Assembly: GCA_964429915.1 (NCBI GenBank)
Contig: CAYSDZ010000008.1
Location: 32,210 to 96,209, forward strand
DNA length: 64,000 bases
Reading direction: 5' to 3'
Source: an uncultured Alteromonas sp.
Lineage (GTDB): Bacteria; Pseudomonadota; Gammaproteobacteria; Enterobacterales; Alteromonadaceae
Each line of letters opens with the position of its first letter. The first letter of the stretch is position 1. Positions 47,891-53,084 of this stretch are shown one piece after another. A program made the position numbers and the translations under genes. The notes beneath the pieces are model-generated. The model searched no databases and was not told the DNA's origin. It was given only the letters and a program-made list of their open reading frames with translations.

Positions 47891-49102
47891 TTAGTGTGCG
47901 GGAATCTTGATTTTCTCGACGTCAGTAGAGGAGTGTGATTTTTCTTTTTCTACGCGAAAATCTAGCTGCACAAGCAAAGCTGTTTGACGCTGAGCTTGCC
48001 CGCCTTGAATACGTGGTTTGTATTCCCATTGCTTAAGGGCATCAACGGCACTGCTATCAAAGGTGCCTTTGGGGAATGATTCAATTACTTTAATGTTGTC
48101 GGTTGAACCTTTCTTAGTGATATCAAACTCTAATATCACAGAGCCTTCAACTCCTTTCTCCGCAGCGTCTTTTGGATATTCAGGGTTAACACGCATAATT
48201 GGTGTGGCTAAGTTAATTTCACTGTTATGAGTCGATGACGGCGGTGCAAGGTTTGCTAAAACCGTGTGGGTTGTAAAAATACTGCCTAATAGTATCGCGG
48301 CAATACTTATTGCTCTACTACTAGATACGGGCTGTTTGATTAAGTTAATACGTTTGATCATGGTCGATTTTTCTCCAAAGGTTGGGTAGGGCGTGATGTT
48401 GCTTGGTGAATATTCAGCACACTGAACAAGTGCTGAAGCATAGTCAATTTTGTCAACTTGGCTTTTGTATTCTAATACTTTAGCGTCGCACGCTAACTCT
48501 TGGTTAATGCGAAAAGATCGCAGGGCTACCCAAACTAACGGGTTGAACCAAAATACTGTGGCAAAGGTTAACGCAAGCAAATTCCAAAGGTGATCTCGGT
48601 GCATAAAATGCACCCGTTCGTGTTCTAAAATCATGGATTGTTGCTTTGAATTAAATTGTTCTGTAAAGCCTAAGGGAACAATAATGCGAGGCTTAATAAA
48701 TCCAAATAACATTGGCGTAGTGGCCACACTGGAGGTATAGAACTGTTGATTCAAAACGTTGTGTGAATTTTCGTGCGTAAGTGATTGATACAGAATGTAG
48801 TAATGATAACTCACGAACATGACTATGCCGGCTACACCGACGGTCCATAAAATAAGTAGTACGTTTAATGCAGGCATTTCGGCTGTAGAACCCACATTTA
48901 TGATATACCGACTTACACTTTGCGATACGAAGGGTAAACTTGTGCTAGGCAAGTTGTTAGCAATCAAGGTAAAGGGAATTAAAAACCAAAGCTGATAGGC
49001 GAATGCGGCGTTTAATTTTCTGCTCAAAAATTTTTCACAACATATCGTAAAGATAAGCGCAATAGACAATACGCCTTGTTGTTGAACTAGCCAATCAGTC
49101 AT
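47891..49102 (-). CDS. BlaR1/M56 peptidase fused to a TonB C-terminal domain
   Basis: TPMLFGFIKPRII, LEHERVH (HExxH), WFNPLVW, QELACD; C-terminal RVNPEYP…VEGSV…ALKQWEYKP; start overlaps the blaI stop. Confidence 0.88.
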   Translation of the reverse strand: MTDWLVQQQGVLSIALIFTICCEKFLSRKLNAAFAYQLWFLIPFTLIANNLPSTSLPFVSQSVSRYIINVGSTAEMPALNVLLILWTVGVAGIVMFVSYHYYILYQSLTHENSHNVLNQQFYTSSVATTPMLFGFIKPRIIVPLGFTEQFNSKQQSMILEHERVHFMHRDHLWNLLALTFATVFWFNPLVWVALRSFRINQELACDAKVLEYKSQVDKIDYASALVQCAEYSPSNITPYPTFGEKSTMIKRINLIKQPVSSSRAISIAAILLGSIFTTHTVLANLAPPSSTHNSEINLATPIMRVNPEYPKDAAEKGVEGSVILEFDITKKGSTDNIKVIESFPKGTFDSSAVDALKQWEYKPRIQGGQAQRQTALLVQLDFRVEKEKSHSSTDVEKIKIPAH

Positions 49103-49481
49103 TGTCGTTTTCCCATTGTTGAATGAGTGATTTGAGCTCGTCAATATCTTGCTTGGATAGCGTGTTTTGATTGGCGAAACCTGCCACCATAGGGGCTATT
49201 TTTCCGTTAAACAGACGGCTTACAAAATGGCTCGTTTCTTTTTTAGTGTATTCTTCACGCGCAATCAGTGGACTGTACAAGTACTGACGTTGCTGCTTTT
49301 CAAAACCGAGCACTTCCTTTTTGACTAAACGTCCAAGCAAGGTTTTCACGGTTTTTTGATGCCATTCTTTGCGCTGCTTCAGTCGAGTGATGACTTCATT
49401 GGCGGTTACAGGGTAGTCATCCCATATTACGTCTAGTACATCAAATTCTGCGTTAGATATATCGGGTCGCTGAGTTTTCAT
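49095..49481 (-). CDS. BlaI/MecI/CopY-family repressor
   Basis: ISNAEFDVLDVIW, TVKTLLGRLVKK, YLYSPLI. Confidence 0.92.
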   Translation of the reverse strand: MKTQRPDISNAEFDVLDVIWDDYPVTANEVITRLKQRKEWHQKTVKTLLGRLVKKEVLGFEKQQRQYLYSPLIAREEYTKKETSHFVSRLFNGKIAPMVAGFANQNTLSKQDIDELKSLIQQWENDND

Positions 49482-49490
49482 AATTTTATT

Positions 49491-49531
49491 GATTACAGAT
49501 GTAGTCTTTGGTTTAGATTACACTTGTAGTC
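49491..49531. promoter_or_regulatory. Two BlaI/CopY-type operators (TACA-NN-TGTA)
   Basis: GATTACAgaTGTAGTC (49491-49506) and GATTACActTGTAGTC (49516-49531), 25 bp apart, directly upstream of the repressor. Confidence 0.85.
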
Positions 49532-49681
49532 AAGAATTGCAAATGTTTTTTTAATCAACACTTAAAGTCGAAGTATTATTGATTGCAGTTACCTTATTTG
49601 CAGGCTAAATTATTCAACCATTTCCAATTTGCGAAGATTTCGAACCAATGAGAATCCTCCATCCTTGTGGACAATGAACTC

Positions 49682-50272
49682 ATGTTAAGTAACAGTCAGT
49701 TAACGAAGCTGGGAGAGAGGTTTAGGAAAAATAAACTTGAAGACGATGATCTGCAAATGCTGGAGCAATTTCGCCAGACGTTCAGTGATATCGACCAAAA
49801 AACATATGAAATAATTCAGGATGCACTCAAATTCTCTGATGAATTAGTTATTACTAAGCGAAAACGAAAAACCCAGCAGTCCATTGTTCATAAGTTGCGA
49901 AGACAAGAAAAATTGAGGCTTCCACAAATGCAAGATATTGCCGGGTGCCGCATTGTGATCCAAAGCAAAAATAGACACGCATTTGGATATTAGGCAATAC
50001 ATATCATTGTGAAAATGGATAAAAAATTCTATGAAATTCAACTCAGAACTTATGCTCAAGATATATGGGCAAATTTAGTTGAAAGCCTTTCAAATGGCGA
50101 CAACACCTTGAAATATGGAGGAAGCGAGAATGAACAGGCCTTAGTCCAAATCTTAAACCGTTTGAGTGAGAAATTTTTTTTATTGGATGAAATTGCACAT
50201 ACTATTTCGCTTAAAAATTATCGGAAAAAAATTCAAGAGGTGATGCAAAATGTTTTATCTAATCGAGCATAA
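49682..50272 (+). pseudogene. RelA/SpoT-type small alarmone synthetase (CapRel-like toxSAS), interrupted by an in-frame TAG
   Basis: ORFs 49667-49993 and 50009-50272 share one frame: RKTQQSIVHKLRR…MQDIAGCRIV…GY*AIHIIV…EIQLRT..QDIWANLVE; TAG at 49991 replaces the Arg of GYRxxH. Confidence 0.75.
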
Positions 50273-50528
50273 TCGCTCTACCAAAGAAACAACAGTCGCC
50301 GAATACGATAACTATTCTGTTGCACAAAGCGAGTGTTTCCAAAAAGAACAAAGGTTTTTTCATGAAAACCAAAGCGAAATAGAAGTTGTTATATTCGAAG
50401 CAGATTCTCTCGAAGGCCTCAAAAGTACACATAGTCGGTACTTTGCAAAGGCGCAAAAAAAAGAAAATACAAAATCAGCTTTGCTTGCCGTAGGCCTTGT
50501 GGGCTTAGGATTGTATCTACTCAGTTAG
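50250..50528 (+). CDS. Putative antitoxin of the SAS toxin, with a C-terminal hydrophobic tail
   Basis: RBS GAGGTG, 23-bp overlap with the toxin; EVVIFEADSLEGLKSTHSRYF; tail ALLAVGLVGLGLYLLS. Confidence 0.65.
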   Translation: MFYLIEHNRSTKETTVAEYDNYSVAQSECFQKEQRFFHENQSEIEVVIFEADSLEGLKSTHSRYFAKAQKKENTKSALLAVGLVGLGLYLLS

Positions 50529-50733
50529 TGATACTAATTGTTGTCTAATCTGAACCGATTTCGCGTACGCTTTTAATGCTGGCATTTCGGCTGTCGAACC
50601 AATATTTACGATATATCGACTACCACTTTGGAGAAACGTTTTTATTCTTTTTTGGCAACGCCCATAATTTGCTATACCTTAATATCACTCATTAATGTTT
50701 CTACAGTGAATAAAAAAACACAGGGGTCCGAGT

Positions 50734-51525
50734 ATGAGTAGTCCATTTCAAGCAAGTGTTGGCTTCGTTATGAGTGCCGACATTGCCGTGCCAGATTATG
50801 AACAAGTAAAGCAGTTTTATATAAAGGTGTTGACGACCGGTAACGCGCCTTTATGGCGAGATGATTTGATGAATCATCTGGGTATCCCAATTATTGGATT
50901 GGGTCGGCAAACACCCGATTATGCCAATTTACCCATTGCATGGATGCCACACATTCAAGTCACAAACGTAGCAACCAGCGTAACAGAAGCTATCGCCAAT
51001 GGTGGCAGTGAGCTTATGCACGGAAGAGATGGCGATGGAAACAGTCAATGGGCCGTATTAACTGATCCCAATGGTACTGCGTTTGGTGTTATTCCTGTGG
51101 TTTCAAAAGATGATCTGCCCAAAACTGAGGAGAGTGCTAAACAGAAGCCGTTTGGCTATATCGGCTGGTTAGATTTAACGGTGAAGAACGCAACTGAAAT
51201 ACGGGATTTTTATAAAGCGGTCATTGGTTGGAGCTCAGAAAATGTGCCTATGAGCGATGGTAATGAACAATATGCCGATTTTAATATGACAAAAGACGAT
51301 GGTCAGCCGGGAGCGGGTATTTGTCACTCACGAGGGACGAATGCTCATATGCCACCTGTATGGATGATATATTTACCTGTTGGTGATTTAGCCCTGAGTC
51401 TCGAGCATGTGCAATCCGGCGGCGGAAGAATAGTCAAAGAATACAAAAATGATGACGGTCAAACCACCTTTGCAGCCATTCAGGATCCTGTAGGTGCCTA
51501 TTTAGCGTTGATGCAGGCTGGATGA
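50734..51525 (+). CDS. VOC/glyoxalase-like protein (two domains)
   Basis: ADIAVPDY…FY, WMPHIQVTNV, DPNGTAFG, WLDLTV, WMIYLPV, DPVGAYLAL. Confidence 0.85.
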   Translation: MSSPFQASVGFVMSADIAVPDYEQVKQFYIKVLTTGNAPLWRDDLMNHLGIPIIGLGRQTPDYANLPIAWMPHIQVTNVATSVTEAIANGGSELMHGRDGDGNSQWAVLTDPNGTAFGVIPVVSKDDLPKTEESAKQKPFGYIGWLDLTVKNATEIRDFYKAVIGWSSENVPMSDGNEQYADFNMTKDDGQPGAGICHSRGTNAHMPPVWMIYLPVGDLALSLEHVQSGGGRIVKEYKNDDGQTTFAAIQDPVGAYLALMQAG

Positions 51526-51623
51526 GTGCTGATTTTCTGACTATAGCTATATAGATTTTAATTTTGGATTAGCAAAGCTACCGTAATACGCGCATAATAT
51601 AAGCATATCATGTGGAGGTGCTT

Positions 51624-51884
51624 ATGAACGTTACTCTTGGTTCAGAATTTGAAAAACGAATTAATGAGAAAGTTGCCTCTGGCCTTTATACTTCTGCCAG
51701 CGAAGTAATCAGAGATGGTTTGAGGTTGTTGTTTGAAAAAGATGTATCGAAGCAACAACAATTAGAAATATTACGTGAAGAGGTTGGCAAAGGCTTTCAG
51801 CAGTTGTCAAGCGGGCGAACTTCCGATAAGTCTGCACTAGATATATTTGCTGAGGTAAGCAAGGAAATCGATGGCAAGCTATAA
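51624..51884 (+). CDS. parD: ParD-like antitoxin (CopG/Arc RHH)
   Basis: RBS GGAGG; MNVTLG…VASGLYTSASEVIRDGLRLL. Confidence 0.88.
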   Translation: MNVTLGSEFEKRINEKVASGLYTSASEVIRDGLRLLFEKDVSKQQQLEILREEVGKGFQQLSSGRTSDKSALDIFAEVSKEIDGKL

Positions 51885-52083
51885 ACTTTCTCAGCTTGCC
51901 GAAGAAGACTTACGACACATATCAGCAAGAACCATTGATAACTGGGGTAGGCTCCAAGCAGAGAAATATGTGTCGCTTCTTCATAATGCAATGACGCAAA
52001 TCGCCAATACTCCTGATATTGGTAAAAACAGACCAGATCTGTCAGCTACCGCGAAGAGCTTTCCTACTCAAAATCAGGTTTGA
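51871..52083 (+). pseudogene. parE: ParE/RelE toxin, C-terminally truncated
   Basis: YKLSQLAEEDL…NWGRLQAEKY…PDIGKNRPDL…KSFP, then a stop at 70 aa, 4 bp before the tRNA repeat; the usual HVIFY segment is missing. Confidence 0.75.
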
Positions 52084-52087
52084 AGTA

Positions 52088-52156
52088 TGGTACCAGAGGC
52101 CGGACTTGAACCGGCAGCACTTACGGTCACCGGCCTCACGGTCGGTGGATTTTGAA
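52088..52156 (-). repeat. Duplicated 3' half of tRNA-Leu (att-like site)
   Basis: 52088-52116 is identical to 52998-53026 (29 bp); 52134-52156 matches the variable arm and anticodon region at 22/23, separated by an inserted segment. Confidence 0.88.
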
Positions 52157-52339
52157 AAGTCAGTGCCTATTTTAAGTCATATAAAAAATAACCTGAAAGG
52201 GCAAAAACGCACCTTGCAAATTCTTTGCAAGTGTTAAACAATTTTTAATCGGTGTATCTGAGCGAAATACATCGCGAATCATGTGTTCCTAGTCAAAATA
52301 GTTTTGATATGTGGTGCTATATTCAGTACCATTAATGTC

Positions 52340-52756
52340 ATGCAAAAGCCCGAGGTAGTGCTCGACATAAATGTGATTTTCTCAGGTTTATATTCATCTG
52401 ACGGCGCGTCATATCAAATTTTGAAAGCATTACCCCAGAGGACATTCGAACCTGTATTATCAGTAACGCTATTATTTGAATATGAAGACGTTTTGAGACG
52501 AAATGCAAAGATGCTTCGACTCAATAGCAGTCAGATTGAATCGGTCTTGAATAATATCTGTGATTTCTGTCGCCATCAAAAAGTACACTATAGGTGGAGG
52601 CCAAATCTGAAAGATCCAAAAGATGATCATGTTTTGGAATTGGCTGTTGCGGCTAACGCTAATTTTATTGTGACACACAATATTCGAGACTTTAAATCAT
52701 CGAATAGATTTAGTGTTCAGGCTATTTCACCCAAACAGTTTTTGGAGAAAATCTAA
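52340..52756 (+). CDS. PIN-domain toxin (PIN_3/TIGR00305-like)
   Basis: VVLDINV, LLFEYEDVL, WRPNLKDPKDDHVLELAV, IVTHNIRDF; start placed at MQKP. Confidence 0.9.
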   Translation: MQKPEVVLDINVIFSGLYSSDGASYQILKALPQRTFEPVLSVTLLFEYEDVLRRNAKMLRLNSSQIESVLNNICDFCRHQKVHYRWRPNLKDPKDDHVLELAVAANANFIVTHNIRDFKSSNRFSVQAISPKQFLEKI

Positions 52757-52997: not shown

Positions 52998-53084
52998 TGG
53001 TACCAGAGGCCGGACTTGAACCGGCACACCCTCACGGGCGGTGGATTTTGAATCCACTGCGTCTACCAATTCCGCCACTCTGGC
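52998..53084 (-). tRNA. leuX: tRNA-Leu(CAA), 87 nt, CCA encoded
   Basis: GCCAGAG/CTCTGGT acceptor stem, GTGGA-TTCAAAA-TCCAC anticodon arm, long variable arm, GGTTCAAGTCC T-loop. Confidence 0.95.

Follow-up and report, generated by a model that had tools for sequence, protein, structure and literature searches.

A probable relic of a two-gene toxSAS toxin–antitoxin module in an uncultured Alteromonas

The locus and its features

A 64,000-nucleotide stretch of DNA from an uncultured Alteromonas sp. (GenBank assembly GCA_964429915.1, contig CAYSDZ010000008.1, positions 32,210 to 96,209 of the forward strand), referred to here as the window, carries at 49,682–50,528 two annotated fragments followed by a small overlapping gene. 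This locus is very probably (about 85%) the relic of a two-gene type II toxin–antitoxin module of the PhRel/CapRel clade of toxSAS. An original prediction, made from the sequence of the window alone, had described a dead toxin and an intact antitoxin, in agreement with the deletion and the TAG found in the toxin frame and with the whole 92-residue open reading frame (ORF) of its neighbour. The features of the locus, in window coordinates, are as follows.

49682–50272, plus strand: toxSAS reading frame, one frame with a single internal stop by direct translation
49682..49993, plus strand: N-terminal fragment of the toxSAS pseudogene, M1 to Y103 and then TAG, its start agreeing with the M(T)LSNSQ of homologues
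49961..49966, plus strand: junction of the in-frame 25-codon deletion, Q94/S95 (plus or minus one residue in the alignment), at columns 98–122 of alignment A1
49991..49993, plus strand: premature stop TAG directly after the G-loop Gly-Tyr, C-to-T at 49991 relative to CAG siblings
49994..50272, plus strand: rest of the toxSAS frame, AIHIIVK...EIQLRTYAQDIWAN... and helices, with TAA at 50270–50272; untranslatable as part of an enzyme in the TAG allele
50237..50244, plus strand: Shine-Dalgarno-like GAGGTGAT, 5 nt before the antitoxin ATG and 9 nt from it at the GAGG core
50250..50528, plus strand: antitoxin gene, 92 residues, intact, ATphRel/ATcapRel family, overlapping the toxin frame by 23 nt in another frame
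50430..50441, plus strand: codons H61-S62-R63-Y64, counterpart of the YXXY neutralisation motif, aligned with CapRel Y352-P-N-Y355
50478..50522, plus strand: C-terminal tail A77–L91 (ALLAVGLVGLGLYLL), a putative tail-anchor transmembrane helix by hydropathy and by the predicted helix 75–91

Two lesions in the toxin frame

The two annotated fragments form one frame broken by a single TAG, as originally proposed and as found by direct translation of 49682–50275. The read-through translation runs MLSNSQ...DIAGCRIVIQSKNRHAFGY*AIHIIVKMDKKFYEIQLRTYAQDIWAN... and includes ...RHAFGY*AIHIIVK...EIQLRT.... The N-terminal fragment contains the N-terminal helices, strand 1 (TKRKRKTQQS), strand 2 (DIAGCRIV) and the Gly-Tyr of the G-loop.

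The first lesion is a deletion. In alignment A1, in which the window copy was aligned with eleven homologues, 25 residues are absent between CRIV(I/L)Q and SK.RH..GY. The CRIV-to-GY spacing is 9 residues (IQSKNRHAF) in the window versus 34 in intact homologues, bearing out the earlier suggestion that so short a spacing implies an additional deletion. In the AlphaFold2 model of the intact homologue P0002 (pLDDT 93.7), the deleted stretch corresponds to residues 96–120, comprising the whole of helix 98–114 and the start of strand 118–126, that is, the helix between strands 2 and 3 together with the beginning of strand 3.

The second lesion is the TAG, which had been placed at the Arg of a GYRxxH motif. 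The position, right after Gly-Tyr, was correctly identified, and the family residue there is R, H or Q; the identity of the lost residue was not, since CAG is still present in sibling contigs, so that the lost codon encoded Gln and the change is a C-to-T transition. With the 25-codon deletion and a stop after Y103, the window copy lacks an intact catalytic domain: it is a pseudogene of the PhRel/CapRel toxSAS family and no working member of it.

Family and nearest relatives of the toxin

The read-through protein matches Pfam RelA_SpoT (E 4e-11) and the PADLOC candidate model PDC-S33 (E 2.5e-24), and an intact homologue matches positions 7–230 of the 349 of PDC-S33 (E 3.5e-27). CapRelSJ46 of phage SJ46 covers nearly the whole of this profile at E 7e-87, and PDC-S33 therefore represents the fused CapRel family. 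A search of 5.8 billion proteins yielded 190 toxin homologues, of which the 120 listed are 218–233 residues long, mostly 220. The Pfam match and the model of P0002 both give the RelA/SpoT synthetase (toxSYNTH) fold. Invariant in 48 intact homologues are R61/R63, R91, G128-Y129 and E144/Q146/R148, which are ATP-site residues (the arginines of strands 1 and 2, the G-loop tyrosine and the E-x-Q-x-R strand). They include the counterparts of CapRel R116 and Y155, with CapRel R79 corresponding to one of R61/R63, a pattern such as would be expected of active enzymes.

In a profile search of the PDB, the best match was CapRelSJ46 (7ztb, 9erv; E 7e-10, residues 3–211), with the housekeeping YjbM/YwaC synthetases close behind at smaller coverage. 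Foldseek with the P0002 model likewise placed CapRel first (9erv/7ztb; E 1e-8, TMq 0.67) and RelP and RelQ next (E ~1e-6, TMq ~0.5). The profile hidden Markov model of the family (A3) scores the PhRel of phage Phrann (gp29) at 70.5 bits and CapRelSJ46 at 49.6 bits, and profile–profile comparison by hhalign gave E 8.5e-14 for gp29 and 3.3e-11 for CapRelSJ46. Judged by these profiles, the toxin family belongs in the PhRel/CapRel clade and, on the few comparisons made, appears somewhat nearer to PhRel. The earlier description as an unfused CapRel-like toxSAS pair is thus supported by the PDC-S33 match, by CapRelSJ46 as best solved relative and, as set out below, by homology of the small gene to Phrann gp30 and by co-occurrence of the two genes.

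The significant matches of RelQ and RelP structures, in both fold and sequence, raise the alternative that the locus is the remnant of a housekeeping small alarmone synthetase (RelQ/RelP/RelV-like) beside an unrelated small membrane protein. This is very improbable: CapRel comes first by sequence and by fold, with fuller coverage, and the score against the NCBIfam equivalog for the housekeeping enzyme (NF053588, GTPPhKinYjbM) is 23 bits versus a cut-off of 320. The small gene, moreover, shares homology with a validated toxSAS antitoxin and always lies beside a toxin gene, and the usual context of the pair is a restriction-modification (RM) operon.

Population record of the decay

The same locus with the same neighbours was found on 10 independent metagenome contigs from seawater samples. 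All 10 carry the 25-codon deletion, whereas the codon at 49991 is TAG in six and CAG (Gln) in four. Because the deletion is present in all copies and the stop only in some, the deletion is the older of the two lesions. Contigs from three public runs, with depths of 118x, 68x and 16x, carry the T allele, and one from a fourth run, at 13x, carries the C allele. The stop is a real variant that is still segregating; the deletion is fixed in this population, and the CAG-to-TAG nonsense change came later and is still polymorphic. The data thus provide a clean two-step record of toxin decay, first by deletion and then by a nonsense codon.

The toxin frame has four variable sites in the 10 contigs (49991, 50098, 50122 and 50171), giving four haplotypes. 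TAG occurs on two backgrounds (T-C-A and T-A-G at 49991, 50098 and 50122), and a non-synonymous change from K to Q at 50171 is confined to TAG copies; these haplotypes would fit a stop that arose once, with drift thereafter.

The presence of CAG in some siblings could also be taken to mean that the stop is a sequencing or assembly error, or that TAG is read through or recoded, the gene being whole. This is barely credible, since TAG recurs in independent assemblies from the three runs, at up to 118x, and the 25-codon deletion is present in every copy whatever the codon at the stop. TAG also terminates 5 of the 37 long ORFs in the window, and is therefore an ordinary stop with no sign of recoding.

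A different alternative accepts both lesions and holds that the 196-residue form encoded by the CAG allele is still a wholly or partly active toxin, TAG being the sole real knock-out and the one that was selected. The deletion is in frame, the remaining sequence retains all invariant residues, the open frame persists in 4 of the 10 contigs, and the TAG allele dominates the deepest samples. However, the deletion takes a whole helix (98–114) and the start of a core strand (118–126), a large active-site deletion made the PhRel of phage Squirty non-toxic (PMC7229694), and none of the 120 homologues listed, out of 190, is shorter than 218 residues. An active shortened toxin is therefore considered improbable.

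The antitoxin gene

The 92-residue protein reads ...EVVIFEADSLEGLKSTHSRYF... and then ALLAVGLVGLGLYLL. The small ORF has no Pfam or NCBIfam family. It matches PDC-S33 at positions 265–332 of 349 (E 4.5e-6), which is the C-terminal antitoxin part of the profile, so that the toxin and the small ORF both match the fused CapRel model. They are not one polypeptide: in the window and in the 18 loci described below, the two ORFs lie in different frames and overlap by 17–23 nt. By BLASTP, the antitoxin is 43% identical (E 1e-7) to the validated ATphRel of phage Phrann, gp30, which reads MPGFLIEFNRRT...SLETLKRTHSRYF. FLIE.NR and SLE.LK.THSRYF are common to the two proteins, and the THSRYF of the window is identical to that of gp30 and invariant in the family of close relatives (A2). 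The 42 close relatives (58–107 residues) share MYYLIEHNR, EMEVVVFEADSLEDLKRTHSRYF, a variable linker and a hydrophobic end, ALLAVGLVGLA.YLL(KK).

An exhaustive profile search extended the family to 238 cluster representatives, mostly of 70–100 residues and tail-less, the tail-less ones retaining FLIEYDR...EVV.L.A.SL..L..TH(S/G/A)RYF. The new HxxY subtype that had been proposed for this locus is accordingly abandoned, since unfused antitoxins of the ATphRel type ordinarily carry TH(S/G/A)RYF. A profile built on 131 distant members of this family matches residues 307–364 of CapRelSJ46 at 14.7 bits, with HsRYF falling on YPNYF; among 2000 shuffled CapRel sequences used as a control, the best score was 7.1 bits. 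The parallel between the small gene and the neutralising segment of CapRel, first drawn by eye, is thus recovered by profile alignment of HSRYF with YPNYF.

The AlphaFold2 model of the antitoxin (pLDDT 81) has strands at 2–8 and 14–19, a helix at 22–38, a strand at 44–50, a helix at 54–60, a helical turn at 62–64 (S-R-Y), a disordered linker at 69–79 and a helix at 75–91. The [Y/H]xxY motif followed by F therefore stands after the third strand and the second helix. In the BFVD, the best match of the model is an unnamed 84-residue protein (E 1.6e-3). Two phages, Corynebacterium phage IME1320_01 and a Pasteurella phage, likewise have a similar small gene behind a toxSAS gene; the small protein of the latter also has 84 residues and may be the protein matched in the BFVD. 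A scan of viral contigs with profile A2 gave no antitoxin relatives.

In one protein among the homologues (P0189, 231 residues), a single ORF runs from the N-terminal half of a toxSAS (as far as ...VAGVRIV... and slightly past it) into a complete ATphRel-like domain ending in THARYF; this is either a further product of decay or a fusion made in gene calling.

The survival of the antitoxin gene beside a dead toxin admits two accounts. An orphan antitoxin could be kept by selection, as protection from homologous toxSASs on phages, plasmids or RM cassettes (anti-addiction or immunity). The ORF is fully intact, with every family-invariant residue and a strong Shine-Dalgarno sequence; it has no polymorphism across the 10 sibling contigs versus four variable sites in the toxin frame; and a second pair of this kind, a truncated ParE with a whole ParD, lies 1.3 kb away. 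However, the difference between zero and four variable sites is not significant for these lengths, and type II toxSAS antitoxins failed in tests to neutralise toxSASs of other subfamilies (PMC7229694). The toxin remnant, moreover, is no more diverged than the antitoxin, each being ~71% identical to its nearest homologue, and this equal divergence makes recent decay the simplest account of antitoxin survival. Maintenance by selection is thus a possible but rather unlikely explanation. In annotation, the small gene merits the name of an ATphRel-family antitoxin, and the two annotated fragments that of one dead toxSAS gene.

The hydrophobic tail

The hydrophobic C-terminal tail noted in the original prediction averages 2.41 on the Kyte-Doolittle scale over 15 residues, and its values on the Hessa scale sum to -1.35 kcal/mol. 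Of the 42 close family members, 41 have a comparable tail, versus 10 of 143 representatives of the wider family. The conserved positions of the tail (A80, L83, V84, L86, A87, L90 and L91) partly follow the spacing of one helix face, with small residues occurring repeatedly, a pattern more suggestive of specific helix packing than of greasiness alone. Compared with three phage toxSASs whose antitoxins have no tail, the toxins of this branch fall short by ~60–70 residues at the C-terminus. The heterotetrameric complex of FaRel2 is stabilised by the C-terminus of the toxin (PMC11782079), and one possibility is that in the branch the tail takes over this stabilising role, at the membrane. No description of a membrane-anchored toxSAS antitoxin was found in the open-access literature.

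Co-occurrence and genomic context

A scan of one genome per species gave 18 toxin-gene loci, from Gamma-, Beta- and Zetaproteobacteria; the toxin protein matches also included one from Leptospira. The small gene overlaps the end of the toxin gene in all 18 loci. In 13 of the 18 (within the set L014–L031, e.g. L017 4432–12426), the pair is embedded in a type I RM operon: hsdM (75–87% identical to the reference) ends at the toxin start or no more than ~40 nt from it and, in most of these loci, the antitoxin gene is followed by hsdS, often rhuM, and then hsdR. The HsdM identity of 75–87% across Beta-, Gamma- and other Proteobacteria suggests that the whole RM cassette moves horizontally. Other copies of the pair lie next to RhuM and HipA, or alone. 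PADLOC PDC models are candidates defined by RM-type embedding (bioRxiv 10.1101/2024.01.29.577857); nothing on ‘PDC-S33’ was found in the open-access literature. Cultured carriers of the branch are Psychrosphaera algicola G1-22, Roseateles asaccharophilus DSM 25082 and Curvibacter sp. CHRR-16.

In an Aliikangiella metagenome-assembled genome (MAG; L015/L035), the situation is the opposite of that in the window: the pair is intact and the RM system has decayed, with a shortened hsdM (378 residues, 247 of them matched) and only a 93-residue remnant of hsdS. One Endozoicomonas MAG has two near-identical copies of the module (L016 6632–6940 and L031 5995–6662) with one frameshift each, in the antitoxin tail region of one and in the toxin of the other. 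These were considered as independent decay events and dropped, as the copies are near-identical and the frameshifts may be long-read indel errors.

The pair in the window has no hsdM or hsdS remnants beside it, and there are no hsd genes anywhere in the window. It has a divergently transcribed blaI-blaR1-like operon on one side and a glyoxalase-like gene on the other, and its G+C content is 36.6% versus 42.7% for the window. The BlaI clusters at 90% identity with Marisediminitalea aggregata, which points to a marine gammaproteobacterium of Alteromonadaceae type as the probable host. The BlaR1-like protein (47891–49144) contains a peptidase M56 domain and a C-terminal TonB_C domain and no penicillin-binding sensor domain. 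Two 16-nt repeats, GATTACAnnTGTAGTC, at 49491–49506 and 49516–49531 in the 200-nt gap between blaI (minus strand) and toxSAS (plus strand), look like BlaI/MecI-type operators. Just downstream of the antitoxin gene, a 66-nt blaR1-like coding fragment (50565–50630, minus strand: QSGSRYIVNIGSTAEMPALK) is 85% identical to 48859–48922 inside the intact blaR1-like gene 1.7 kb away, and appears to be left over from a second copy or a rearrangement.

The second dead-toxin/intact-antitoxin pair (51612–52083) consists of a whole ParD-like gene (51612–51884) and a ParE-like ORF (51871–52083, 70 residues) that covers only profile positions 1–53 of 89 and ends 3 nt before a partial copy of a tRNA-Leu gene. 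The tRNA-Leu(CAA) itself is at 52998–53084 (minus strand), and the partial direct copy, of its 3' part, at 52087–52156. The two bracket an islet of ~840 bp with a PIN_3-domain gene (52283–52756) and no integrase, apparently what remains of an element that had integrated at the tRNA.

Proposed mechanism

The homology, architecture, ordered lesions, co-occurrence and genomic context observed here allow a mechanism to be proposed for intact members of the branch, with the enzymatic target, neutralisation mode, membrane anchoring and defence role predicted largely by analogy. PhRel and CapRel specifically inhibit translation; pyrophosphorylation of the tRNA CCA end has been shown in vitro for FaRel2 and PhRel2 (bioRxiv 10.1101/2021.04.30.441581) and reported for CapRelSJ46 (PMC11782079), and use of tRNA as substrate leaves no clear signature in the sequence (bioRxiv 10.1101/2021.04.30.441581). 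By analogy with PhRel and CapRel, the intact toxins would pyrophosphorylate the tRNA CCA end. The antitoxin of ~92 residues, translated from the overlapping frame, would bind the toxin, and its TH-S-R-Y turn would enter between the conserved arginines of strands 1 and 2 and block the ATP (donor) site. ATfaRel2 has been shown to act by such a block, and the same has been proposed for the CapRel C-terminal domain (PMC11782079, PMC9712102). The C-terminal hydrophobic helix would probably anchor or oligomerise the antitoxin at the inner membrane; the membrane-tethered sensor put forward in the original prediction is likewise putative. From its usual place between hsdM and hsdS, the branch may act in abortive infection as a second line of defence, a prediction drawn from the type I RM embedding in 13 of 18 loci and from relatives. 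In the window, the toxin was inactivated twice, by the 25-codon in-frame deletion first and by CAG-to-TAG later, and the antitoxin is most simply an orphan left by recent decay.

Several points weigh against this reading. Comparison of the narrow antitoxin profile A2 with CapRelSJ46 by hhalign is weak (E 0.14), although in the same HSRYF/YPNYF register, and the significant antitoxin–CapRel matches came from the broader profile and the PADLOC model only. Foldseek comparison of the antitoxin model with the PDB returned no significant hit (best E 0.74), neither to CapRel nor to ATfaRel2, and a sequence search of the PDB with the antitoxin profile gave no matches; the relation to the CapRel C-terminal antitoxin domain (pZFD) therefore rests on sequence profiles. 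A promoter scan of 49400–50800 found no sites, and no RNA-seq run was found to hold the locus. Toxicity, neutralisation, substrate and defence are predicted properties of the branch members; that the deletion by itself would abolish activity is suggested by the P0002 model, and insertion of a 15–17 residue tail into the membrane is suggested by hydropathy.

The combination of a minimal PhRel/CapRel-like toxin, a tailed antitoxin and a stereotyped position between hsdM and hsdS was not found described in the literature searched, and the branch looks like an undescribed variant. It is a tentative proposal that this is a toxSAS immunity variant, with a minimal 220-residue toxin, a conserved Gly/Ala-rich antitoxin membrane helix and an hsdM-hsdS site, in which the tail tethers or oligomerises the complex at the inner membrane. 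If so, the tail could substitute for the stabilising C-terminal extension that the toxin has in other two-protein toxSAS complexes, and could couple toxin release to a membrane-level event in phage infection, and orphan antitoxins could confer immunity to incoming cassettes. The yield for this genome itself is modest; the branch ranges over Gamma-, Beta- and Zetaproteobacteria and Leptospira, and its cultured carriers make it testable whether a toxSAS antitoxin can be membrane-anchored, and with what effect on triggering.

Comparison with known systems

Among the closest known systems is the PhRel:ATphRel pair of Mycobacterium phage Phrann (gp29:gp30), which like the locus described here has two separate genes, the toxin first and a small antitoxin just downstream. 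Its gp29 is the top score of the toxin profile (70.5 bits) and its gp30 the 43% identical relative of the window antitoxin, and the pair is a validated toxin–antitoxin pair and prophage defence system (PMC7229694). By contrast, gp29 has 292 residues, with ~80 extra at the C-terminus, versus 220 in the branch, and gp30 (71 residues) is without a hydrophobic tail. The Phrann pair is phage-borne in Actinobacteria, whereas the branch is chromosomal in Proteobacteria, usually between hsdM and hsdS, and the copy in the window is dead. The CapRel:ATcapRel pair of Mycobacterium sp. AB308 is comparable by description, being bicistronic, with CapRel and PhRel as sister groups and a homologous antitoxin (PMC7229694); it is actinobacterial. 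The phRel:aTphRel and capRel:aTcapRel pairs are validated pairs with homologous antitoxins (PMC7229694). Fusion and fission are reported to have been repeated in evolution, unfused CapRel being common in Actinobacteria (PMC9712102).

Fused CapRelSJ46 (PDB 7ZTB) is the closest solved structure to the toxin domain. It shares with the branch the conserved arginine pair and the G-loop tyrosine, and its YPNYF aligns with HSRYF. It differs in being one polypeptide of 373 residues rather than two overlapping genes, in having Tyr as the first motif residue where the window antitoxin has His, and in its lack of a hydrophobic tail. CapRel's C-terminal domain senses a phage capsid protein.

FaRel2:ATfaRel2 of Coprobacillus sp. 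D7 (PDB 8PU1) is the only solved two-protein complex of a tRNA-targeting toxSAS, in which a compact antitoxin puts its YXXY turn into the ATP donor site (PMC11782079), the mechanism proposed here for the branch. FaRel2 belongs to another toxSAS subfamily and is a weak structural match to the P0002 model (Foldseek rank 49), and ATfaRel2, unlike the branch antitoxin, has a permuted topology and no tail. A precedent for the decay itself is provided by the PhRel of Mycobacterium phage Squirty, which has a natural large active-site deletion and is non-toxic (PMC7229694); it belongs to another lineage, and no nonsense codon has been reported in it, whereas the window copy combines a deletion with a stop that is still segregating.

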